DNA from: Synechococcus sp. A15-28
Lineage (GTDB): Bacteria; Cyanobacteriota; Cyanobacteriia; PCC-6307; Cyanobiaceae
Direction: 5' to 3'
Assembly (NCBI RefSeq): GCF_014280175.1
Contig: NZ_CP047931.1
Coordinates: 2,250,001-2,282,000, forward strand
DNA length: 32,000 nt
Of this stretch, positions 9,409 through 20,242 are shown in pieces (the first letter of the stretch is position 1; each line of letters begins with the position of its first letter). The position numbers were made by a program, and so were the translations under genes. The notes beneath the pieces are model-generated. The model saw only the letters and a program-made list of their open reading frames with translations. It had not been told where the DNA came from and did not search any database.

Positions 9409-11118
9409 ATGCCCTACCGCATCTCCCGCCAGGCCTACGCCGAGACCTACGGACCCACCACCGGCGACCGGGTTCGCCTGGCCGACACCGAGCTGATCCT
9501 CGAAGTCGAGAAGGATTTCACCGTGTACGGCGACGAGGTGAAGTTCGGCGGCGGCAAGGTGATTCGCGATGGCATGGGCCAGTCCCAGACCCCTCGAGCC
9601 GAGGGCGCCGTCGACACGGTGATCACCAATGCTCTGATCCTGGATTGGTGGGGCATCGTCAAAGCCGATGTCGGACTGAAAGACGGCCGGATCGTGGGCA
9701 TCGGCAAAGCCGGCAACCCCGACACCCAGGAAGGGGTGACCATCGTGGTGGGCCCCGGCACCGAGGCGATCGCTGGGGAAGGTCACATCCTCACGGCCGG
9801 TGGCATCGACACCCACATCCACTTCATCTGCCCCCAGCAGATCGAAACAGCTCTGGCCAGTGGCGTCACCACCCTGATGGGAGGCGGCACTGGACCAGCC
9901 ACCGGCACCAACGCCACCACCTGCACCCCCGGCGCCTTCCACATCGGGCGAATGCTCCAGGCAGCGGAAGGCCTGCCGGTGAATCTGGGCTTCTTCGGCA
10001 AGGGCAACGCCAGCACCCCTGAAGCCCTGGAAGAACAGGTGCGCGCCGGCGCCTGCGGCTTGAAGCTGCATGAAGACTGGGGCACCACACCGGCAACGAT
10101 CGATGCCTGCCTGTCGGTGGCCGACCGGATGGATGTGCAGGTGTGCATCCACACCGACACCTTGAATGAAGCCGGCTTCGTGGAAGACACGATCGCCGCC
10201 ATCAAGGGACGCACCATTCACACCTTCCACACCGAAGGTGCCGGCGGCGGCCATGCACCGGACATCATCAAGATCTGCGGCAAAGCGAATGTGCTGCCAA
10301 GCAGCACCAACCCCACCCGGCCCTACACCCGCAACACGCTTGAGGAGCACCTCGACATGCTGATGGTGTGCCACCACCTCGATCCGAAGATCCCGGAAGA
10401 CGTGGCTTTTGCCGAATCGCGGATTCGCCGCGAAACGATCGCCGCCGAAGACATCCTTCACGACCTGGGCGCCTTCTCGATCATCGCCAGCGACTCCCAG
10501 GCCATGGGGCGCGTGGGCGAAGTGATCACCCGCACCTTCCAGACCGCCCACAAGATGAAGGTGCAGCGCGGTGCACTGCCGGAAGACTCCAACCGCAATG
10601 ACAACTATCGGCTGAAGCGCTACATCGCCAAGGTGACAATCAACCCCGCTCTTGCCCATGGCATCAGCAGCGAGGTGGGCTCGATCGAAACCGGCAAGCT
10701 CGCCGATCTCGTGCTGTGGAAGCCGGGCTTCTTCGGCATTCGCCCGGAACTGGTGGTGAAGGGCGGTTCGATCGTCTGGGCCCAGATGGGCGACGCCAAC
10801 GCCTCGATTCCCACCCCCGGCCCGGTGCACGGCCGGCCGATGTTCGGCGCCTTCGGCAAAGCCCTTGCCCCCAGTTGTCTTACCTTCGTGAGCGCAGCGG
10901 CGATGGATGCCGACATCCAACGTCAGCTGGGACTGGAGCGCACCTGCATGGCGGTGAAGGAGACCCGCAGCGTCGGCAAGAGCGCCCTCAAGCTGAATGC
11001 AGCGCTGCCCAAGGTGAGCGTGGATCCGCAGACCTATGAGGTGTTCGCCGACGGTGAGCTGCTCACCTGTGAGCCCGCCGAGGTGCTGCCCCTCGCCCAG
11101 CGCTACCTGCTGCTTTGA
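9409..11118 (+). CDS. ureC: urease subunit alpha UreC
   Basis: 569 aa with the active-site motifs [17 protein letters not shown] and MVCHHLD. Confidence 0.97.
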
Positions 11119-11223
11119 TCCAAAGCACACCCCAAGGTGTTCTGCATCACCAATTCAGAAGAAAGTTCAAATTGGTATCCGCACGAACGACCGCCAAGAA
11201 TTCAAACCTTGCATAATTCTTTT

Positions 11224-11237
11224 GTAGCAACTGCTAC
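11224..11237 (+). promoter_or_regulatory. consensus NtcA-type box GTA-N8-TAC within a 7+7 inverted repeat
   Basis: TGTAGCA-AC-TGCTACA spans 11223-11238, with perfect 7-bp arms and an exact GTAGCAACTGCTAC core. It lies in the ureC/DUF4278 intergenic region, 85 nt upstream of the DUF4278 ATG. Confidence 0.45.
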
Positions 11238-11240
11238 AGA

Positions 11241-11321
11241 CGTTCACCTTGCTTATTGAAGCAAGGCGCAGTTCGACTCAGGCCATGGAACGGGGACCTG
11301 AGCTTGCTTCGAGGAACCACC
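11241..11321 (+). promoter_or_regulatory. structured 5' leader, candidate glutamine-riboswitch-like (glnA / Downstream-peptide family) element
   Basis: CGTTCACC begins at 11241. Hairpin 1 is CCTTGCTT-ATTG-AAGCAAGG (11247-11266). Hairpin 2 is CTCAGG-(14 nt)-CCTGAG (11277-11302). Its loop contains GAACG (11288-11292), complementary to CGTTC (11241-11245), so a pseudoknot is possible. A second CTTGCTT copy (11303-11309), next to GAGGAA and the ATG, can pair alternatively with AAGCAAG. No covariance model was run. Confidence 0.35.
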
Positions 11322-11489
11322 ATGACGACTCTTCTCTACAGAGGTCAGGCCTACCAGCAGGTCAAGGAGCCTGCACAACAGCAGGGCGTGCAACTCACCT
11401 ACCGCCGCAACGTTTATCAGTCCCGCCAGGCTGATGTGCGTCAGGCCCGTGTTCAACTCACTTACCGCGGCGTCAGCTACCTGCGCTGA
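11322..11489 (+). CDS. DUF4278-family small protein (55 aa)
   Basis: MTTLLYRGQAYQQ...VQLTYRRNVYQ...VQLTYRGVSYLR carries three L-[LT]-Y-R-[GR]-x-x-Y repeats, typical of cyanobacterial DUF4278. The track ORF start at 11256 adds 22 residues with no similarity. Confidence 0.7.
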   Translation: MTTLLYRGQAYQQVKEPAQQQGVQLTYRRNVYQSRQADVRQARVQLTYRGVSYLR

Positions 11490-11500
11490 TACCTGTTGGT

Positions 11501-12175
11501 TCAGGCCACAAGTCGGTTAAGCACGGGCAATTCCAGCAGTTCATCACGCCACTGCTGAGCCCACAGATCCTGACTGCGTTCGTAGAGCTCCATCAGCTCT
11601 TCGACCGCACCTGGGCGGAAATCAACCCGCAGATCCAGCAACGGAAATGCCGCTTCGCCGCTCACCTGCAGAGCGGCGGATGTGCAGCTTGATGCGCGTT
11701 GGTCGCCACCAGCCTGCTCTCCTGCCTGCAGGGCCGTCATCAAACGACGGCCCAGTTTCCAGTTGGGATCACTGGTGAGAAACGTCTGTTCCATCGCCTC
11801 CAGCACCACTTCGCCAGCCAGGCAATTTCCCGCAACCGAAAGGTTGGGATGGTGCCGATGACCCGCCCATCCGCCGCACTCAACTCCAGTCCAGCAAGCA
11901 GTCCGGCCATCAAGATCGATCAGATGGAACTGGCGCCAATCCCGTTGGGGGTCATCCAGCAGAAGGCTGTTCAGCACATCCTGCGCATCCGCATGATGTT
12001 CAAGACGCTCCAGGCCGCAAATTCCCAGATAAGGATTGGTGTGGGCTTGGGTTGCAACGGCACCTACTCCAGATCGGATGTGGGGAACAGTGGAGCCCAC
12101 AGCCAGGTGACAGGTCGCCACGGCAACGCCGAAACGACCGTTGTTGGGATCACGCGCCAGGATTGAGAAGGTCAA
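11501..12175 (-). CDS. DUF1028-family (Ntn-hydrolase-fold) protein
   Basis: It begins (TTG)-TFSILARDPNNGRFGVAVATCHLAVGSTVPHIRSGVGAVATQA, the hallmark DUF1028 N-terminus with Thr2 as the putative N-terminal nucleophile. The TTG start overlaps the upstream stop (TTGA). Confidence 0.8.
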   Translation of the reverse strand: MTFSILARDPNNGRFGVAVATCHLAVGSTVPHIRSGVGAVATQAHTNPYLGICGLERLEHHADAQDVLNSLLLDDPQRDWRQFHLIDLDGRTACWTGVECGGWAGHRHHPNLSVAGNCLAGEVVLEAMEQTFLTSDPNWKLGRRLMTALQAGEQAGGDQRASSCTSAALQVSGEAAFPLLDLRVDFRPGAVEELMELYERSQDLWAQQWRDELLELPVLNRLVA

Positions 12176-13452
12176 GACAGCTCGCGATCCAAACGCTGCA
12201 GAGTCCCCAGCAAGACGGCAGCCCCAGCCCAGCAGTGCTCGTCACTGGTGAATTCCTTGGATGAGTGGCTAAGCCCACCACGGCTGGGGACGAAAATCAT
12301 TCCCATCGGCCAGCGACGTCCGATCTCCTGCGCATCGTGACTGGCACGGCTGGGAAGGTGGCTATGCGACAACCCCAGATCCTCTGCAGCAGAAACGATC
12401 GCTGCCATCACTCCATCCGCTGCAGCTGTGGGTTCCACCTCAAATTGAGGTTCCAACTGGATCGGGCATCCGGTTTCGGCACCGATCCGCTCCACCTGCT
12501 GCATCAACTCAGCCACCAACTGATCGAGCACAACTGAATTCACATCCCGGAGGTCAACGGTCAGCGCCACTGAGCCAGGCACCACATTGGCGGCGTTGGG
12601 CCAGACCTCGAGTCGTCCGACTGTGGCAACGGGATCACCTGGGTGCTGTCTGGCCATCGTCTCCACCGCCAGCACGATCCGGGACGCCGCCACCAAAGCG
12701 TCTTGCCGCAGCTTCATCGGCGTGGTGCCGGCGTGGTTCGGCTGACCATCCACCTGGATGCTGAAACGGCGTTGTCCCACAACGCCCTCCACCACACCGA
12801 TGGCGTCACCGCGTTGCTCGAGCACGCCTCCCTGTTCCACATGGAGCTCGAGAAAAGCAGCACAGGCGTCGTCCGCCCGACGTGCTGAGACCAGCGATGG
12901 CCAGTGACCACCGATACGAGCGAGATTGTCCTCGATCGGTTCCCGATTGCTGGTGGCATAGGCCTTGGGGTCACAGGAAGCCGTACCGGCCATGCCCTTG
13001 CACCCGACCATCGTCGATTCCTCATCGGCGAAGGCGATCAACTCGAGATCGTGCTGAAGACGAATGCTGTTGTCCTGCAGGGAGCGACAAACTTCAAGAC
13101 CTGCCAAAACCCCCAACACACCGTCAAAACGACCACCGGTGGGAACGGTGTCGAGGTGGGAACCGGTCATCAGTGCTGGGCGATCCGGATCCAACCCCTG
13201 AAGCCGACCGATCAGGTTGCCCGCCGTATCGATCCGAACCTGAAGGCCAGCCTCGTTCATCCATCGGGCCAGCAAGGAACGTCCCGCAACGTCCTCAGTC
13301 GAGAAACCCCGTCGACAGACGCTGCCATCGGGCTGCAGCCCAATGGCAGCCATTTCAGCCAAGGAGTGCATCAGACGCTCACGGTTGGGTCGAATGCCCA
13401 CCTGTGCTTTCGACCGAGCAGTGACCTGGCGAGTGGTCAGGAGGGACGGCAA
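12172..13452 (-). CDS. M20-family hydantoinase/carbamoylase-type amidohydrolase (allantoate amidohydrolase / N-carbamoyl-L-amino-acid hydrolase / beta-ureidopropionase group)
   Basis: Contains GSHLDTVPTGGRFDGVLGVLAGLEV, FADEES and a C-terminal SHDA, the metal-ligand motifs of the AmaB/AllC group. Confidence 0.82.
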   Translation of the reverse strand: MPSLLTTRQVTARSKAQVGIRPNRERLMHSLAEMAAIGLQPDGSVCRRGFSTEDVAGRSLLARWMNEAGLQVRIDTAGNLIGRLQGLDPDRPALMTGSHLDTVPTGGRFDGVLGVLAGLEVCRSLQDNSIRLQHDLELIAFADEESTMVGCKGMAGTASCDPKAYATSNREPIEDNLARIGGHWPSLVSARRADDACAAFLELHVEQGGVLEQRGDAIGVVEGVVGQRRFSIQVDGQPNHAGTTPMKLRQDALVAASRIVLAVETMARQHPGDPVATVGRLEVWPNAANVVPGSVALTVDLRDVNSVVLDQLVAELMQQVERIGAETGCPIQLEPQFEVEPTAAADGVMAAIVSAAEDLGLSHSHLPSRASHDAQEIGRRWPMGMIFVPSRGGLSHSSKEFTSDEHCWAGAAVLLGTLQRLDRELS

Positions 13453-13547
13453 TGCAGTGGCCTTCAGATCAAAAGATCAGATCACCATCGCCGCAGCGAC
13501 CCAAACGGCCTGTCGTCAATGCGACGTTTTAACCCTCACCAAAGAAT

Positions 13548-15572
13548 TCAAACGGGCATCAGCACCCGCCACCCGAGGCGATCGGCCTGCTCACGAGCCT
13601 GGGCTGGCACATCGGCCGCTACAAACATCCGATGCAGCATCTGGACACCCAGGAGGTGGTTGATGACGGCATCCATCTGAACCCGCTCGGCGTCGGTGGT
13701 GGCAGGGTCGTCGTGGCGCGCAAACAAGGCACGCACGCCCTCTTTGCTCAACAACCCAGCCGCATCAATCGCTTCATCACTCAGGTAGTCATCAGCCAAC
13801 TGCTTCATTTGCGCCCACTTCTCGGGCTCGGTGTGGGCCGGGGGCGCCAGGAAGGCAAATTTTTCGCGCTTGTAAAGCACCTCCGGCAGCAGACCCGCCA
13901 TGGCCTCCCGCAGCACATATTTCTCAGTTTTTCCCTTGATCCGCAGCTCCGGAGGCACTTGTACCGCCGCAGCCGCCAGATGGTGATCCAGGAAAGCCGG
14001 CCGTGCCTCCATGGAGTTGGCCATGTCGACGCGATCACCTCCCCAGGTGAGGATCTGGCCTTCCAACATTGTTTTGATCCAGACGTACTGAGCCTTGTCG
14101 AGGGCATGGCGACCATCGAGTTGCTGGGGATTCAACTGCTCAGCAATGGCTTTACCTGGCGAGTACTCCACCAACGCCTGACGGTGCTCGTCAGCCAGCA
14201 GATCCGGCACCAGCGGCGCGCAGGCCAGCCAGGGCTGCAGACAGCTGGGGGTGAAGCCCACCACGGCATCAAGATCGGGATCATCCACCTGATCAGCCGC
14301 CAGCATTGCTCCCTGCACCAGGGAATTGTTGGTCTGCAGCAGAGACTCCCAATCATGGCGATCGCTCTGCGACAGGTCCTCCAGACCATGGAGGAACATG
14401 TCACGCCGGAACGCGGGATAGCCACCGAACAGCTCGTCTGACCCTTCCCCAGTCATCACGACTTTGTAGTCGACACTATTGACATGGCGACTCATTAAGT
14501 ATTTGGCCACAGCCAAGGTGTTGTAGATCGTGCGCTCGGTATGCCAGAGCGTTTGTTCCATGTGGCCGTACAACTCACGACCCGACAGACGCATGACGTC
14601 CTGCTCGGCACCGGTGGCCTCCGCCATCTCCGCAGCAATGGGTGTTTCGTCGTAGCGCGCATCATCGAATCCGATCGTGAACGCCTTGACGGGACCCTGA
14701 CTCACCGCCGAAGCAAGACCGAGGATCGAACAACTGTCGATTCCGCCTGAGAGATAACAACCCACGGGCACGTCGGCCACCATCCGCATCTCCACCGCTT
14801 CCAGCAGAGCAGCACGAACATTGGCGATGTGATCAGCCTCCGTGAGGGTGCTGTCCCGCTGATCCAAACGTGGAAAATCGACATCCCAGTAGGTCGACTC
14901 CGACACCTCCAGCCGGTCACTCCTGCGCTGCACCTTCAGCACATGACCAGGCTGAACTTGGTGCACCCCGGCGAAGGCGGTCGTTCCCGGGACCATGGTC
15001 TGCATCAACTGATGAAAGAGACCCTCCGACGTGAAGCGTCGCTCCACGGCCTGGTGAGCAAACAGCACCTTCAACTCGGAGCCGAACACCAACCCCTCCG
15101 GCGTCATCGTCCAGTACTGGGGCTTGATGCCGAAGCGATCCCTCACCAGATAGAGACAGTCATCCGCCGCATCAAACAGAGCAAAGGCGAATTCCCCCCG
15201 CAGCAGAGGCAACGTGGACTCGAGACCCTGCCGTTGATACAGGCGCAACAAAATCTCGGAATCACTCTTCGAGGAGAAACGCACTCCCTGGGCGGTGAGA
15301 TCAGCACGGATGCGCTGAAAGTCGTAGAACTCGCCGTTGTGCGCCATCAGCACCTGCCGGTCGTTGCTGAGAAACGGCTGACGTGCCCGGGATTCGTTCA
15401 GATCAATAATCGACAACCGGGCATGACAGAAGCCGACACCGGCTGCGTCGAGGCATTCCACACCGAAACCATCCGGTCCGCGATGGGACTGGATGGCCGC
15501 CATGTTGACCAACAGCTGGCGATCCAACGTCTGATGACGATCCGCCAGAAACACACCTCCGATTCCGCACAT
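13548..15572 (-). CDS. asparagine synthetase (glutamine-hydrolysing)-like amidotransferase, 674 aa
   Basis: Has the N-terminal MCGIGG (Cys2 Ntn glutaminase nucleophile) and the PP-loop SGGIDS (CYLSGGIDSCS). It is longer than E. coli AsnB. Confidence 0.85.
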   Translation of the reverse strand: MCGIGGVFLADRHQTLDRQLLVNMAAIQSHRGPDGFGVECLDAAGVGFCHARLSIIDLNESRARQPFLSNDRQVLMAHNGEFYDFQRIRADLTAQGVRFSSKSDSEILLRLYQRQGLESTLPLLRGEFAFALFDAADDCLYLVRDRFGIKPQYWTMTPEGLVFGSELKVLFAHQAVERRFTSEGLFHQLMQTMVPGTTAFAGVHQVQPGHVLKVQRRSDRLEVSESTYWDVDFPRLDQRDSTLTEADHIANVRAALLEAVEMRMVADVPVGCYLSGGIDSCSILGLASAVSQGPVKAFTIGFDDARYDETPIAAEMAEATGAEQDVMRLSGRELYGHMEQTLWHTERTIYNTLAVAKYLMSRHVNSVDYKVVMTGEGSDELFGGYPAFRRDMFLHGLEDLSQSDRHDWESLLQTNNSLVQGAMLAADQVDDPDLDAVVGFTPSCLQPWLACAPLVPDLLADEHRQALVEYSPGKAIAEQLNPQQLDGRHALDKAQYVWIKTMLEGQILTWGGDRVDMANSMEARPAFLDHHLAAAAVQVPPELRIKGKTEKYVLREAMAGLLPEVLYKREKFAFLAPPAHTEPEKWAQMKQLADDYLSDEAIDAAGLLSKEGVRALFARHDDPATTDAERVQMDAVINHLLGVQMLHRMFVAADVPAQAREQADRLGWRVLMPV

Positions 15573-15581
15573 CAGTTCGCC

Positions 15582-16769
15582 TCAGATCACATCCATCACG
15601 CGCTCGGCACGATTCACCATGCAGGTGAGCAGTGCCATGCGCACAAACACCGCCCCACGCGCCTGGCTGAAATACCAGTTGTGCGGCGTGTCATCGAGAC
15701 AGGTGCTCAGCTCAGGACCCCGGGCCAGGGGATGCAACACGATCGCCTCCGGCTTGAACGGCAGATCCCGGGTGAGACGAAATCCACCGCCGTGCACCTC
15801 GTAGCTGTCGCCAACCCAGGCAATCGCATTGATGTAGACGACATCCAGATCGGGAATCTCAGCAGCCAGATCTGAACTGCAGCGGATGGACATCCCGCTT
15901 GCTTCCAGTTCCTCCAGCTGGCCTGGATCAAACAAAGGCGCTTCCGACTCCATCTCGGGCGCATGGATCACCACCACCTCCTCCAGGATCTGGGGGAATT
16001 TGCTGAGGATCCGCAGCAGCGAACGCACGGTGCGCATCCGCGACGGCAAACCGATCACCCCGATGCGGATCCGATCCTTCGGGGAGTCCTCTTTCGAAGC
16101 AAGGCTTGGACGCCATTTGAACATCGTGTAGAGATCCGCCATCGCCTGTGTCGGATGCTCATCAATGCCATTACCGGCATTGATGATCGGAATCCGCAGG
16201 GTGGAACTCATGGCGTACACGGCCTCCGGATTGCTGTCGCGCAGCACCACGCAGTCGCCGTAGTTGTTGAACATGTGCGCCACGTCTTCGAGCGACTCCC
16301 CCTTGGCGATGCCGGTGGTGCTGCGATCGGTGATGTTGATCGAATCACCGCCGAGGCGATGCCAGGCGCTGTCGAAGGAAAGGCGTGTGCGCGTGCTGGG
16401 CTCGTAGAACGCGTTGATCAGGATCTTGCCGGTGAGCGGCGTGTTGTGCCGGCAGTAACGGTCTGGGTTGCTCTCGAATTTCGCCGCCAGTCGAAACAAC
16501 TGGAGCAGGGTTTCAGCACGAAATGCCTGAATCGACACCACGTGTTGATCGACAAGATCCACCAACGGCTCACCGTCTTCAGCGATTGCGGCCAAAAGCT
16601 CCTGCGGCTGATTGTGGCCGAACACATCAGGACCCATCGGCTGGAAGCGGAGCGGCGCCGAAGCCTCCTCGATCACGGCTGTGTGGGGTTGTGCCATAAG
16701 CATTTGCATCAACACCCGATTTGCCAGATCGCGTGATGTGCCATGAATCACATCATCCTTCGCTAACAA
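15582..16769 (-). CDS. aspartate/ornithine carbamoyltransferase-fold protein, atypical (unknown second substrate)
   Basis: Carries the carbamoyl-phosphate motifs STRTR and HPTQ and the ATCase-like HPLAR. The ATCase aspartate-loop motif (TRVQKER) is replaced by INAIAWVG. The start is uncertain: TTG 16769, or ATG 16709/16703/16697. Its stop lies 9 nt before the AsnB-like ATG. Confidence 0.75.
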   Translation of the reverse strand: MLAKDDVIHGTSRDLANRVLMQMLMAQPHTAVIEEASAPLRFQPMGPDVFGHNQPQELLAAIAEDGEPLVDLVDQHVVSIQAFRAETLLQLFRLAAKFESNPDRYCRHNTPLTGKILINAFYEPSTRTRLSFDSAWHRLGGDSINITDRSTTGIAKGESLEDVAHMFNNYGDCVVLRDSNPEAVYAMSSTLRIPIINAGNGIDEHPTQAMADLYTMFKWRPSLASKEDSPKDRIRIGVIGLPSRMRTVRSLLRILSKFPQILEEVVVIHAPEMESEAPLFDPGQLEELEASGMSIRCSSDLAAEIPDLDVVYINAIAWVGDSYEVHGGGFRLTRDLPFKPEAIVLHPLARGPELSTCLDDTPHNWYFSQARGAVFVRMALLTCMVNRAERVMDVI

Positions 16770-16873
16770 CGAACCAGCACCCCTGACCAGCTTAAAAGAA
16801 GTTCTTTATACAAATAACTGGCAAATAGTTCGAATGAATACCAAATCCGCCGCAAATTGTTCACTTTGAACAT

Positions 16874-17020
16874 TCACCAGACGCGTCCATTGCGCCACTC
16901 AAACCACCAAATCACCAGCAATGCGAGCACAGAACAGACGAGCGCCACCTGGCTTCCCACCAGGACCAGACCGAACCAGTGTTGATCCACCAGAACCGTG
17001 AGCAGCAACGCATTGGCCAT
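16874..17020 (-). CDS. unannotated 48-aa hydrophobic ORF immediately downstream of the symporter
   Basis: An ATG 5 nt after the symporter stop gives MANALLLTVLVDQHWFGLVLVGSQVALVCSVLALLVIWWFEWRNGRVW*. It is too short for the ORF track. GC-rich codons and a hydrophobic profile are the only support. Confidence 0.35.
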   Translation of the reverse strand: MANALLLTVLVDQHWFGLVLVGSQVALVCSVLALLVIWWFEWRNGRVW

Positions 17021-17025
17021 GGCGT

Positions 17026-18456
17026 TCACACCCCCTCTTGCAGACGATTGAAATCAAACCCTTCCGGCTGCCAGCGGCTGCCCACCACCATCACGACAGC
17101 CGAAACGGCTGCGGAGAACACTGCCGCGCAATAGGGAGCAATCAGAACGTAAGCCGATAGTCCGACGGCACTGCCGGCTGCCATGGCGACGATCGCTGCC
17201 CAACGATTGGCAGAAGACCAGTAGAGACCGCAAGCCACAGGCCAGACCGTGGAGGCCACCAACGCACCGGTGAAGAACAGCACCGACGCCAACGAATCCA
17301 GTCGCGGCCAGGACAGGGCCAGGGTGAGAACAGACAGGCCAACCACCATCTGCCGGGCCGCCTGCTTGAGCTGTGCATCGCTCGCCTGAGGGCGCAGCAG
17401 ACGGAAATAGACGTCTTCCGCCAGCAGATCCGCCGTGGACGCCAACAGCGAATCCAGGGTGGAGGTGAGTGACGCGAAGACCACCACAAACACCAGTGCC
17501 GCCCCACCAGCCCCCAGAAGATCGGCCGCCATTACAGGGAACACCATGTTCACCTGCTCCAGCGGCAGGTCCCTGGCCAGCGCCACCAGACCGATCGATC
17601 CCGTCACCAGGGGGATACTCATCCAGGCCAATCCCCCCAAGACAAACGAGGTCATCACCACACTGCGCCGGCTGGCGAACACCCGCGACCACCAGATGTT
17701 GTTGTGAAAGACTTCACCCATCGAGAACAGGGCGGAATTCCAGGCGATCAGCAGACCAGCCGGAAGCAAGAGATCCAGCCGGTCAGGGTGCGTACTGATC
17801 AAGCGAGCATGCACCACCGGCATCGGGAACTGACGGAACGCCAGCACCGCCACCACCGCCAGCAACACCATGATCAGCAGCGACTGGATGAAATCGGTTC
17901 CGATCACTGCCCGCATGCCGCCGAACAGGGTGTAAACGGTGGCGACGCCGATCACCACCACCATGCCTACGTGGTAATCGAAGCCGGAGAGCGCCTGAAG
18001 CAACAGACCGGCCCCCATGGCCTGGGTCATCAGAAAACCGAGGGTGTACACAGCGGTGATCACCATGAACACCCACCACGCCAGGCGCCCGTAACGCAAC
18101 CGGATGAAATCGCCACTGGTGCGGCCATGCGGCATCAGCTGCTTGATCCGCACGGCCAGCGGCGCGAACAGGATCAAGCCCAGACCGGCCAGGGCATAAC
18201 TGAACATGCCCCAAAGACCAGTCCTGTAGCCGAATTCCGGAGCCAGCAGTGTGGTGTTTCCGGTCACCCAGGAGGCCATCAGCGTGGCCGTGCTCAACGC
18301 CAACCCGATGTTGCGTCCGGCCAGCATGTAGTCGTCGGCATCTCCTTTACCGCGGCGGCCCCAGACGATCCCCAAGGCGATCCACAGCACGGAAAACAAC
18401 ACAACCAGGGCCCAGGCGATGCCAGGCGCCAGAAAAGGTGCGGCGTCAGCAGGCAT
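17026..18456 (-). CDS. sodium:solute symporter (SSS) family transporter
   Basis: Polytopic protein of about 476 aa with the SSS-like N-terminal region DDYMLAGRNIGLALSTATLMASWVTGNTTLL. The start is either ATG 18456 (MPADAAPF) or GTG 18474. Confidence 0.85.
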   Translation of the reverse strand: MPADAAPFLAPGIAWALVVLFSVLWIALGIVWGRRGKGDADDYMLAGRNIGLALSTATLMASWVTGNTTLLAPEFGYRTGLWGMFSYALAGLGLILFAPLAVRIKQLMPHGRTSGDFIRLRYGRLAWWVFMVITAVYTLGFLMTQAMGAGLLLQALSGFDYHVGMVVVIGVATVYTLFGGMRAVIGTDFIQSLLIMVLLAVVAVLAFRQFPMPVVHARLISTHPDRLDLLLPAGLLIAWNSALFSMGEVFHNNIWWSRVFASRRSVVMTSFVLGGLAWMSIPLVTGSIGLVALARDLPLEQVNMVFPVMAADLLGAGGAALVFVVVFASLTSTLDSLLASTADLLAEDVYFRLLRPQASDAQLKQAARQMVVGLSVLTLALSWPRLDSLASVLFFTGALVASTVWPVACGLYWSSANRWAAIVAMAAGSAVGLSAYVLIAPYCAAVFSAAVSAVVMVVGSRWQPEGFDFNRLQEGV

Positions 18457-18571
18457 CGACCGACCCCCGATCACGCCAGTGCAGATGGCCCTGAATGATC
18501 ATCGCCACCGTTGCCAGGGTCACCGCAGCACCGAGGGCAAAGACCAGTCCAGCCCAGAGATTGTCATCCAA
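18446..18571 (-). CDS. unannotated 41-aa single-TM ORF overlapping the symporter start
   Basis: TTG 18571, preceded by GAGGAG 7 nt upstream, gives (M)DDNLWAGLVFALGAAVTLATVAMIIQGHLHWRDRGSVDAC*. Its last codons contain the symporter ATG (GATGCCTGCTGA). Confidence 0.35.
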   Translation of the reverse strand: MDDNLWAGLVFALGAAVTLATVAMIIQGHLHWRDRGSVDAC

Positions 18572-18705
18572 AGCGAATCTCCTCTTCAGCAGATCTCAGA
18601 CAAGCAAATCGCGGTGTTCTCGAGCTTGCATTCACGAATAACAAGTCGCTGGCGCTACCCAAATCACAGGCTGTCAGTGCACTGATGCCTTCAATCTCGA
18701 AATGT

Positions 18706-18719
18706 GTAGCAATCACAAC
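18706..18719. promoter_or_regulatory. NtcA-like half-consensus box GTAGCAATCACAAC (GTN10AC)
   Basis: It lies in the divergent intergenic region between the symporter operon and the ATP-grasp gene. It shares the TGTAGCAA half-site with the box at 11224. No TAN3T sits at the canonical 22-nt spacing on either strand. Confidence 0.2.
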
Positions 18720-18769
18720 CCGCGGGGCCCTGATCGAGTTTTTGGATGCGCCTATTCATCGTTCAGGCA

Positions 18770-20242
18770 ATGTTCACCGAGTACCGACCAACCCATGGGT
18801 ACGACGAATATTTTTGCCGTGAACAGTCCGCTCCCCGCGCTGATCTGGAGCCGCTGCTGTCCTCCCTTGGAGCCATGGGGCTGGCGGAACTGAATCGCAG
18901 TCATGCATCAGCGAGCAATCTGTTGCGACGTCTTGGCGCCACCTTCCGACTCAACGGATCAGGTCTGCATGGCGGAGAGCGGATCCTTCCCTTCGATCCA
19001 CTGCCAAGACTCATTCACCGTCAGGAATGGTCCGTTCTGGAGCGCGGATTGGTGCAACGCCTGGAGGCCATTGATCAGTTTCTGGCGGACGTTTATGGAC
19101 CCCAACGGATCCTCAACGATGGCGTGATCCCCCGTGAGGATGTGGAGAGCTCCCAGGGCTGGCGGCCCCAGATGCAGGACATAGCCGTGCCGCTCAACCG
19201 CTGGTGCCACATCTCAGGTCTGGATCTGATCCGCGATGGCGACGGCACCTGGAGGGTTCTGGAGGACAACCTGCGCTGCCCCTCCGGCGTGGCTTATTTC
19301 CTTGAGAACCGTCGGGTGATGAAGCGGTTGTTCCCCAGCCTGTTCCAAGGGCGAACCGTGCAGCCGATCGACGATTACCCCTCCCATCTCTTGCGCACGT
19401 TGCGTGATCTGGCTCCTTGGAGTGATGCCCCACGGGTGGTGCTGCTCACCCCCGGCGTGTTCAACAGCGCCTACTTCGAGCACAGCTATCTGGCCCAGCA
19501 GATGGGCATTGCCCTTGTGGAAGGCCGCGATCTGATCTGTGAAGACGGACGCGTCTGGATGCGCAGCACGGCCGGTCGGGAACCTGTGGATGTGATCTAC
19601 CGGCGCATCGATGACGATTTCCTCGATCCGAACGTGTTCCGACGCGATTCGATGCTCGGTGTCCCCGGCCTCATCGATGCCATGCGCTCCGTTCGGGTGG
19701 CCATCGCCAACGCCCCTGGGAGCGGTGTCGCTGACGACAAGCTGATCTATGCCTACGTGCCGGCCATGATCCGTTACTACCTCAACGAAGAACCGATCAT
19801 CGACAACGTCCCCACCTATCTCTGCTCAAGGGACGACGACCGCCGTTATGTGCTCGAACATCTCAACGAACTGGTAGTAAAATCAGCCGCCGAGGCAGGC
19901 GGCTACGGAATGTTGATCGGGCCCCATGCCAGTTCTGAGGAGATTGAGAGCTTCGCGGTGAAGATCAAGGCTCACCCGCGCAATTTCATCGCCCAGCCCA
20001 CCCTGCAGTTATCCACAGTTCCATCCCTGAGCGAAGGGGAGCTGTACCCCTGCCATGTGGATCTGCGCCCCTACGTGCTCCGGGGTAAAAGCGACTGGGT
20101 CAGCCCCGGCGGCTTGACTCGTGTAGCCCTGAAACGCGGTTCCCTTGTGGTGAACTCCTCCCAGGGGGGCGGCTGCAAGGACACCTGGGTGGTCAGCGAC
20201 AGTGCCGTAACGGCTGGCAATCAGGAGCTCGTGCCGTGCTGA
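18770..20242 (+). CDS. circularly permuted ATP-grasp (type 2) family protein
   Basis: The start MFTEYRPTHGYDEYF and the 490-aa architecture match the CP-ATP-grasp proteins that precede Alpha-E and transglutaminase genes. The stop overlaps the next gene's start. Confidence 0.82.
   Translation: MFTEYRPTHGYDEYFCREQSAPRADLEPLLSSLGAMGLAELNRSHASASNLLRRLGATFRLNGSGLHGGERILPFDPLPRLIHRQEWSVLERGLVQRLEAIDQFLADVYGPQRILNDGVIPREDVESSQGWRPQMQDIAVPLNRWCHISGLDLIRDGDGTWRVLEDNLRCPSGVAYFLENRRVMKRLFPSLFQGRTVQPIDDYPSHLLRTLRDLAPWSDAPRVVLLTPGVFNSAYFEHSYLAQQMGIALVEGRDLICEDGRVWMRSTAGREPVDVIYRRIDDDFLDPNVFRRDSMLGVPGLIDAMRSVRVAIANAPGSGVADDKLIYAYVPAMIRYYLNEEPIIDNVPTYLCSRDDDRRYVLEHLNELVVKSAAEAGGYGMLIGPHASSEEIESFAVKIKAHPRNFIAQPTLQLSTVPSLSEGELYPCHVDLRPYVLRGKSDWVSPGGLTRVALKRGSLVVNSSQGGGCKDTWVVSDSAVTAGNQELVPC

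Follow-up and report, generated by a model that had tools for sequence, protein, structure and literature searches.

A gene of the marine cyanobacterium Synechococcus sp. A15-28 encodes a transcarbamylase that has kept its carbamoyl-phosphate site but lost the residues that bind aspartate in aspartate transcarbamylase (ATCase). The gene lies on the minus strand of a 32,000-nt stretch of contig NZ_CP047931.1 (positions 2,250,001 to 2,282,000; hereafter the window), and it is flanked by genes for a sodium:solute symporter (SSS), an AsnB-like amidotransferase, an M20-family hydrolase and a DUF1028 protein. We propose, at a probability of roughly 0.55, that this pseudo-ATCase module would serve the synthesis and recycling of N-carbamoyl-glutamine amide (CGA) or a very close ureido-amide. 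The evidence lies in the fold and motifs of the protein, the loss of its aspartate ligands, its place as a third paralogue, the synteny of the module across phyla, its presence in a species that makes CGA, and the induction of the genes by salt in strain WH 8102.

Loss of the aspartate site

15582-16697, minus strand: pseudo-ATCase (non-aspartate transcarbamylase), 371 aa from a conserved ATG at 16697

The open reading frame (ORF), which can be extended to a TTG codon (15582-16769, minus strand), is intact and without interruption, and its product contains the Pfam domains OTCace_N (E = 2.7e-40) and OTCace (E = 5e-13). Counted from the TTG, as are all motif residues of the pseudo-ATCase given here, the protein has FYEPSTRTR with STRTR at 125-129, AKGES at 155-159, HPTQ at 205-208 and, in its C-terminal half, SRMRTVRS at 243-250, YINAIAWVG at 312-320 and HPLAR at 346-350. 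A first-pass annotation, made by a model from the letters of the window, had placed STRTR one residue too early (124-128) and had read STRTR, HPTQ, RTV and HPLAR as an intact carbamoyl-phosphate site. The motif positions and the alignments bear out that reading, with STRTR, HPTQ, RTVRS and HPLAR all present. These include the SxRT and HPxQ motifs common to transcarbamylases at large, and STRTR and HPTQ are invariant across the family.

The site for the second substrate has been rebuilt. Two independent alignments, one made with HMMER against the M. jannaschii and Arabidopsis ATCase structures and the other with MAFFT against the PyrB of the same genome, both set A-I-A-W-V-G opposite R-x-Q-K-E-R, such that Arg229 is replaced by Ala315, Gln231 by Ala317 and Arg234 by Gly. 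YINAIAWVG therefore stands where E. coli PyrB has YMTRVQKER, as had been claimed, and a conserved but offset Arg/Gln pair is ruled out, since the two alignments concur and the published motif table for the family likewise gives AIA (Table 1 of PMC4016543). ATCases can be told from other transcarbamylases by the RxQxxER motif of the 240s loop (Shi, Allewell and Tuchman, review, PMC4581275); compared with the ATCase structures and with the RLQKER of its own genome's PyrB, the pseudo-ATCase has A-I-A-W-V-G-D instead.

The block LDVVYINAIAWVGD is nearly invariant among 46 family sequences from cyanobacteria, Gamma-, Alpha- and Betaproteobacteria and other groups, and such near-invariance across phyla points to a selected specificity determinant rather than to decay. 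Asn314 is invariant and Trp318 nearly so, and both are specific to the family. Also invariant within the family are Arg246 (the equivalent of Arg167), the lysine of KGE (the equivalent of Lys84) and the carbamoyl-phosphate residues. In ATCase, Arg167 and Lys84 contact the alpha-carboxylate end of aspartate. Judging from these residues, the enzyme should be unable to hold the aspartate side chain; with the contacts to the alpha-carboxylate kept and the ligands of the beta-carboxylate lost, its second substrate would be an alpha-amino acid with a non-acidic side chain.

The fold was predicted with AlphaFold from the 46 aligned sequences (mean predicted local distance difference test score, pLDDT, 86.9; predicted template modelling score, pTM, 0.88). 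In the Protein Data Bank the model is best matched by the ATCases of T. cruzi, P. abyssi, E. coli and human CAD, with template modelling (TM) scores of 0.83-0.89 by target length at 26-33% identity.

A third paralogue next to ArgF and PyrB

The source genome (2.34 Mb, a single contig, with WH 8017 and AG-670-A05 as closest named relatives) contains exactly three OTCace_N genes. Besides the pseudo-ATCase these are ArgF (NF001986, 416.7 bits against a cutoff of 306; HCLP motif) and PyrB (NF002032, 362.9 bits against a cutoff of 263), so a canonical pyrB is found elsewhere in the genome and above its model cutoff. This PyrB has the HPSQ, RLQKER and HPGPVNRG motifs that the first-pass annotation had given for the housekeeping cyanobacterial enzyme when it argued that the gene in the window is something else. 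Thioalkalivibrio, E. mobilis, Prochlorococcus MIT 9314, N. halophila and T. sibirica also have exactly three paralogues.

The pseudo-ATCase falls below the curated cutoff of every NCBIfam model for ATCase, ornithine transcarbamylase (OTCase), putrescine transcarbamylase (PTCase), N-acetylornithine transcarbamylase (AOTCase) and YgeW. The ATCase models give 194.8 bits against 236.95 (TIGR00670), 186.6 against 263 (NF002032), 162 against 512 (NF006046) and 153 against 560 (NF008853), and the OTCase and PTCase models give 70-110 bits against cutoffs of 280-500. The motifs of the OTCase branch (DxxxSMG or a related 240s-loop motif, HCLP, HDLP) are not present. A maximum-likelihood tree places the HPLA proteins together in a clade of their own (93/87) that is sister to PyrB (100/99) and apart from ArgF, rather than lying inside an ATCase or OTCase clade. 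The branches within the HPLA clade are much shorter than the cyanobacterial-proteobacterial distance in PyrB, which would fit spread by horizontal transfer; local G+C is 0.60, the same as in the adjoining genes. Motifs, model scores, tree and paralogue count all support the earlier view of a transcarbamylase that is distinct from PyrB, with an intact carbamoyl-phosphate site and a second substrate other than aspartate.

The database annotation is aspartate carbamoyltransferase, and the best solved relatives are ATCases, so the gene might be taken for a redundant or regulatory second ATCase of pyrimidine synthesis. We give this reading scarcely any weight, given the missing Arg229, Gln231 and Arg234, the scores below every ATCase equivalog cutoff, and a context unrelated to pyr genes. 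Moreover, a canonical PyrB occurs in each of the six genomes, as judged by model score here and by the HPGP motif or tree position in the others. The gene thus appears to be a third paralogue and not the pyrimidine-pathway ATCase of the genome.

The published pseudo-ATCase family

A marine subgroup of 'pseudo-ATCases' was reported in 2013 by Barba, Dutoit, Legrain and Labedan (BMC Syst Biol 7:99, PMC4016543), and our literature search found the term in that paper only. The members of this 'Subgroup 3' (the text and Table 1 of the paper disagree on the numbering) are from Rhodopirellula baltica, Nitrosococcus oceani, Synechococcus WH 8102 and Kangiella koreensis. Their motifs are HPLA in place of HP[LG]P and AIA, AIS or SIA in place of RXQ, and their genes lie between a Na+ symporter on one side and a 'putative asparaginase' on the other, with a HyuC-like carbamoylase nearby. 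Barba et al. assigned the subgroup neither a substrate nor a role; the sole characterised subgroup in their study is that of Rxyl_2847, a ureidoglycine transcarbamylase (UGTCase) with the motif H[ST]LP.

The gene in the window has the same motif pair, HPLA (in HPLAR, 346-350) and AIA (A315-I316-A317), and the syntenic block recurs here in the order SSS / pseudo-ATCase / AsnB-like / M20 / DUF1028. The N. oceani protein (P0214) aligns within the family at 59% identity. Our gene is the orthologue in another Synechococcus strain of an already published family. The first-pass claim of a distinct paralogue with a novel substrate stands insofar as this is a non-aspartate transcarbamylase, but the family itself has been on record since 2013.

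The neighbouring genes and their conservation

The other genes of the module lie on the same strand:

17026-18474, minus strand: sodium:solute symporter (SSS), 482 aa, Pfam SSF, upstream of the pseudo-ATCase
13548-15572, minus strand: AsnB-like glutamine-dependent amidotransferase, 674 aa, Pfam GATase_6/7 and Asn_synthase
12172-13452, minus strand: M20 N-carbamoyl-amino-acid hydrolase, from NCBIfam models and solved relatives
11501-12175, minus strand: DUF1028 protein, 224 aa, in a presumed amidase slot, Pfam DUF1028 (E = 2.3e-65)

The AsnB-like gene starts 10 nt past the stop codon of the pseudo-ATCase, and its product has the catalytic Cys2. It scores 425 bits with TIGR01536 and 293.7 bits, below the cutoff of 570.1, with TIGR03104, the model for the amidotransferase of N-acetylglutaminylglutamine amide (NAGGN) synthesis; neither this genome nor that of Prochlorococcus MIT 9314 has a second full-length Asn_synthase gene. 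For the M20 protein the best NCBIfam match is the N-carbamyl-L-glutamate amidohydrolase ErtE (428 bits, cutoff 520), and the protein exceeds the cutoff of the hydantoinase/carbamoylase family TIGR01879 (387 bits, cutoff 204). Its best solved relative is the L-carbamoylase 3n5f (E = 5.6e-84), compared with E = 4.8e-59 for the allantoate amidohydrolase 1z2l. The DUF1028 gene overlaps the stop of the M20 gene by 4 nt, and the sole solved relative of its product is the hypothetical protein 2imh. The symporter has sub-threshold similarity to PutP and PanF. To the left of the module are ureDABC, ureEFG and urtABCDE, and to the right is a cpATP-grasp / Alpha-E / transglutaminase operon.

Conservation of this arrangement was surveyed by tblastn over 80 pseudo-ATCase loci from several phyla. 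Wherever a locus extends far enough, the AsnB-like gene lies directly 3' of the pseudo-ATCase, and the adjacent pair was seen in Synechococcus, Prochlorococcus, Thioalkalivibrio, Nitrosomonas halophila, Emcibacter, Ketobacter and a metagenome-assembled genome of the Myxococcales. The M20 carbamoylase is linked in nearly all loci, both in cyanobacteria and in most proteobacteria. The symporter precedes the pair in Synechococcus and most proteobacteria, and is absent in Prochlorococcus and E. mobilis. Among these loci DUF1028 is limited to those of cyanobacteria. The M20 gene of Thioalkalivibrio, Ectothiorhodospira and related Chromatiales has a BiuH/RutB-like hydrolase of the isochorismatase family as its neighbour, and a MarR regulator usually precedes that hydrolase pair. 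Two unrelated hydrolase families in one slot suggest that the function needed there is that of an amidase. Nearly all hosts with a name come from the sea, from saline habitats or from soda lakes.

In T. sibirica (L085, 8001-9080) the pseudo-ATCase lies between a patatin-like gene and a lipid A acyltransferase-family gene, and a cluster-type AsnB-like gene is found about 0.7 Mb away.

Carbamate kinase was not found at the model cutoff in this genome or in those of Thioalkalivibrio, E. mobilis, Prochlorococcus MIT 9314 and N. halophila; there is one near-cutoff match in Thioalkalivibrio, on a different contig. This speaks against a classical catabolic pair of transcarbamylase and carbamate kinase.

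The same result bears on a role in purine breakdown, in which the gene would be of the UGTCase type and the M20 protein would act as an allantoate amidohydrolase. UGTCase is the one characterised pseudo-ATCase, and the M20 protein does pass the 'allantoate amidohydrolase' model NF006771 (405.9 bits, cutoff 399). However, H(T/S)LP is absent and HPLA is found instead, and Table 1 of Barba et al. pairs H[ST]LP with GX[SC] and gives AIA for the marine subgroup. The context also lacks an allantoinase and a uricase (none in the window) and a carbamate kinase (none above the cutoff in the genome), and the M20 protein is nearer to 3n5f than to 1z2l. Motif and context thus largely refute purine catabolism, which we regard as very improbable.

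A candidate pathway to N-carbamoyl-glutamine amide

In CGA, glutamine bears a carbamoyl group on its alpha-amine and has its alpha-carboxyl group turned into an amide (review, PMC1224877), and the chemistry of CGA fits the module because the adjacent pair comprises a transcarbamylase and a carboxylate amidotransferase. Substrate, sequence of reactions, product and role in the cell are all inferred, as follows. With carbamoyl phosphate as donor, the pseudo-ATCase would carbamoylate an alpha-amino acid at its alpha-amino group; the side chain of this substrate would be something other than a carboxylate, and L-glutamine is the most likely candidate. The translationally coupled AsnB-like enzyme would then adenylate the alpha-carboxylate and amidate it with glutamine-derived ammonia, and the product would be an uncharged ureido-amide. 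The M20 and DUF1028 proteins (in many proteobacteria, M20 and an isochorismatase-type amidase) may degrade the compound to glutamine or glutamate, NH3 and CO2, and the Na+ symporter may recapture or import it.

The distribution of the genes is consistent with this pathway. CGA is a compatible solute of Ectothiorhodospira marismortui (Galinski and Oren 1991, cited in PMC1224877), and the same review equates E. marismortui with E. mobilis and groups CGA and NAGGN as two solutes of one class. Three E. mobilis strains carry a pseudo-ATCase orthologue, and so do E. marina, E. lacustris, E. magna, E. shaposhnikovii, Ectothiorhodosinus mongolicus and Thiorhodospira sibirica; the set from the Ectothiorhodospira group is 71-72% identical to the Thioalkalivibrio protein. 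The E. mobilis locus (L084) reads sucrose synthase / MarR / M20 / isochorismatase / pseudo-ATCase / AsnB-like / PfkB. By sequence, then, the module genes appear to be present in a CGA-producing species, if E. marismortui is E. mobilis as PMC1224877 has it. Imhoff et al. (PMC7824335) found E. mongolicus and T. sibirica to be without betaine and ectoine synthesis and named CGA as one possible solute. Our literature search found no paper that assigns genes to CGA, and nothing that ties the salt responses of Thioalkalivibrio to the pseudo-ATCase.

The sucrose synthase gene beside the E. mobilis module (L084, 2897-5281, minus strand) was not seen in the Thioalkalivibrio loci and, confined as it is to E. 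mobilis, offers weak support.

The same two enzymes could instead yield a different product, such as the N-carbamoyl amide of Glu, Asn, Ala or Gly, or a guanidino compound. For the latter, the PP-loop domain of the AsnB-like enzyme might adenylate the ureido oxygen and add ammonia, by analogy with argininosuccinate synthetase and GMP synthetase. The sequence does not specify a side chain, the A-I-A pocket consists of small, hydrophobic residues, the AsnB-like enzyme is under the NAGGN amidotransferase cutoff, and a carbamoylase with a BiuH/RutB-like or DUF1028 protein would equally suit breakdown from guanidino to ureido to amine. On the other side, amination of a ureido group is not known to us from any AsnB-family enzyme, and neither is a natural product or solute with one of these structures from the host taxa; CGA, by contrast, has been documented in a genus that has the module (PMC1224877). 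We consider a different product possible but doubtful.

Induction by salt and the nitrogen context

In strain WH 8102, SYNW2454 is one of three transcarbamylase paralogues (PMC2242806). A microarray study of this strain by Mao et al. 2010 (PMC2874817, Additional file 10) lists 102 genes that responded to an additional 0.125 M NaCl after 2 h at a 1% false discovery rate. On that list SYNW2454 ('putative aspartate carbamoyltransferase') is raised by 0.78 log2 and SYNW2453 ('putative asparagine synthetase') by 0.62, both with q = 0, and SYNW2451 by 0.20. The list also holds gsmt and sdmt (+0.87), ggpS (+0.43) and genes for glucosylglycerol and betaine transporters. For Rhodopirellula baltica, RB13301 goes unnamed in the main text and in part of the supplement of the salinity-shift transcriptome (PMC2754498).

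An alternative that draws on the same data is that the module is a catabolic one for scavenging nitrogen and belongs functionally with the adjoining urea genes: the symporter would import a ureido or amide compound, and the hydrolases together with a phosphorolytic pseudo-ATCase would free NH3 and carbamoyl phosphate. The module does sit among urea (ureDABC/urt), nitrate and NtcA-linked genes, two of its five proteins are hydrolases of ureido or amide bonds and a third is a transporter, and Barba et al. took the context as hydantoin-type metabolism (PMC4016543). Nitrate and nitrite assimilation genes and cyanase also rise with SYNW2453/2454 on the salt-shock list, but no urease or urea-transport gene is among its 102 entries (PMC2874817). 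Moreover, the coupled AsnB-like enzyme, with its glutaminase Cys intact, spends ATP and glutamine nitrogen on an amide, and its coupling in every locus but that of T. sibirica would be left unexplained. Carbamate kinase is missing at the model cutoff in this genome, Prochlorococcus MIT 9314 and E. mobilis, Prochlorococcus and E. mobilis retain the enzymes without the symporter, and the proteobacterial module is unrelated to urea genes and has a MarR regulator. We therefore hold nitrogen scavenging to be unlikely, a little more so than a different product.

Points against a CGA pathway

Several points weigh against synthesis of CGA. The substrate cannot be read from the sequence. The Ala/Ala pair would make the pocket larger and more hydrophobic and by itself creates no amide-binding site. 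To our knowledge, CGA has been reported only from Ectothiorhodospira, and the solute analyses of picocyanobacteria known to us list glucosylglycerol, glucosylglycerate, sucrose and betaine, and no CGA. With four N atoms per molecule, CGA would be costly in nitrogen-poor water, and the module lies within a nitrogen-assimilation region of the window (urt, ure, an NtcA-type box). Genes for synthesis and breakdown share one strand with short gaps and would risk a futile cycle if co-expressed. T. sibirica has the pseudo-ATCase without an AsnB-like neighbour.

The WH 8102 evidence is likewise open to question. SYNW2454 is identified as the orthologue by annotation, adjacency and two papers (PMC2242806, PMC4016543), not by sequence, and the induction is modest, 1.5- to 1.7-fold. 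Since nirA and genes for a nitrate transporter, nitrite assimilation and cyanase (cynS) are on the same list (PMC2874817), it is possible that an effect of nitrogen status lies behind the induction.

Start codon, N-terminal extension and leader

The first-pass annotation had counted from the TTG at 16769 and had noted an N-terminal extension relative to PyrB. Orthologues in other Synechococcus strains are 369-375 aa long, and their alignment begins at residue 25, the ATG at 16697, which is conserved in a nucleotide alignment of ten Synechococcus loci. The 72 nt upstream of this ATG have frame-breaking indels in relatives and, in L006, an in-frame stop. Because the upstream frame is interrupted in this way, we have dropped the TTG; the true start is most likely the ATG at 16697 (Met25), which would give a protein of 371 aa.

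Counted from Met25, STRTR begins at residue 101. In E. coli PyrB it begins at Ser52 in the usual numbering. The proteobacterial orthologues are about 355-360 aa long, and about 25 residues directly before the domain are conserved across phyla (P-D-x-x-G-x-x-x-P-x-x-L ... E-D). In the AlphaFold model this stretch forms two short predicted helices at a pLDDT of about 90, and residues 1-28 are disordered. The extension thus appears to be real and conserved, although with Met25 as the start it is shorter than the TTG frame had implied.

16698-16873, minus strand: conserved non-coding leader, 176 nt, between a 48-aa mini-ORF and the pseudo-ATCase start

The leader takes in the 24 codons of the TTG-extended ORF and combines nucleotide conservation with frame-breaking indels. 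It contains one 7-bp hairpin (CACGCGAU...AUCGGGUG) with some compensatory changes among Synechococcus strains (RNAalifold), and its single-sequence fold has a z-score of only -0.2, so its stability is not unusual. Rfam at gathering thresholds gave no match in 16698-16873. With one small conserved hairpin, this z-score and no Rfam match, a riboswitch in the leader is not supported.

Other elements in the window

Small hydrophobic ORFs at 18446-18571 and 16874-17020, both on the minus strand, bracket the symporter gene and show coding-type conservation across Synechococcus loci. The first overlaps the symporter ATG and the second begins 5 nt past the symporter stop; possibly they are small transporter subunits.

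An NtcA-type GTA-N8-AAC box (18706-18719, plus strand) lies inside the invariant block TTGCTACACATT, where the symporter gene and the cpATP-grasp operon diverge. The box is conserved in nine Synechococcus loci, and its position suits the cpATP-grasp direction; toward the symporter no -10 element was seen at the usual spacing. A consensus sigma-70 scan of 11200-18800 found no promoter.

A glutamine-riboswitch-like element had been suspected, and Rfam confirmed it with a full-length match to the Glutamine-II riboswitch aptamer (11238-11302, plus strand; 72.9 bits, gathering score 33). The aptamer lies just left of the end of the DUF1028 gene and upstream of a small plus-strand ORF. Rfam also gave a full-length match at 9564-9850 (minus strand, 166 bits) to the Helicobacter 5' ureB small RNA (sRNA), antisense to the 5' part of the urease alpha-subunit gene; most likely this reflects conserved urease coding sequence and not a real sRNA here.

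Implications

Hundreds of marine genomes label this gene aspartate carbamoyltransferase and its partner asparagine synthetase, in both cases very probably by mistake. CGA was described in 1991, and the module offers a testable two-enzyme hypothesis for this orphan osmolyte pathway. If the proposal is correct, ocean metabolomes have overlooked a nitrogen-rich ureido-amide that some high-light Prochlorococcus and the abundant marine Synechococcus either make or use. Such a compound may serve as an osmolyte and possibly also as a small nitrogen buffer, a role suggested by the urea, nitrate and NtcA-controlled genes that the module adjoins. Synthesis or import of a CGA-like compound by picocyanobacteria would add a four-nitrogen molecule to marine dissolved organic nitrogen and to the list of their solutes. 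It would also mean a new substrate specificity in the transcarbamylase family, recognisable by the motif HPLA with N-A-I-A-W. The salt-shock link in WH 8102 and the start-codon correction for the cyanobacterial version are new here.

Comparison with known systems

Compared with PyrB (EC 2.1.3.2; M. jannaschii 2rgw, P. abyssi 1ml4, E. coli 1d09), the pseudo-ATCase has the same two-domain fold, the carbamoyl-phosphate site and equivalents of Arg167 and Lys84. It differs in overall identity (26-33%), in the change of RxQxxER to AIAWVGD and of HPLP to HPLA, and in some 35-50 extra N-terminal residues. It also forms a separate clade, coexists with a true PyrB and has no pyr context.

The gene shares STRT, HPTQ, HPLA and A-I-A, as well as marine hosts, with the marine subgroup of Barba et al. 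The symporter and the HyuC-like carbamoylase are common to both, and the gene called 'asparaginase' there corresponds to the AsnB-like amidotransferase here. The UGTCase of Rubrobacter xylanophilus (Rxyl_2847) likewise lies on the ATCase branch, has lost RxQ and uses a substrate other than aspartate. It has H(T/S)LP, however, and belongs to a purine-degradation operon with allantoinase and carbamate kinase, whereas the family studied here has HPLA and is found with AsnB-like, carbamoylase and symporter genes and without carbamate kinase.

The closest parallel in logic may be the NAGGN pathway (asnO-ngg). There, as proposed for the module, the amino group of glutamine is masked by an acyl-type group and its alpha-carboxyl by an AsnB-family amidotransferase, with an uncharged solute as the result. 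The likeness is one of logic only: TIGR03104 is below its cutoff, no Ngg-type ligase/acetyltransferase is encoded in the window, and the masking group would be a carbamoyl from carbamoyl phosphate rather than an acetyl.

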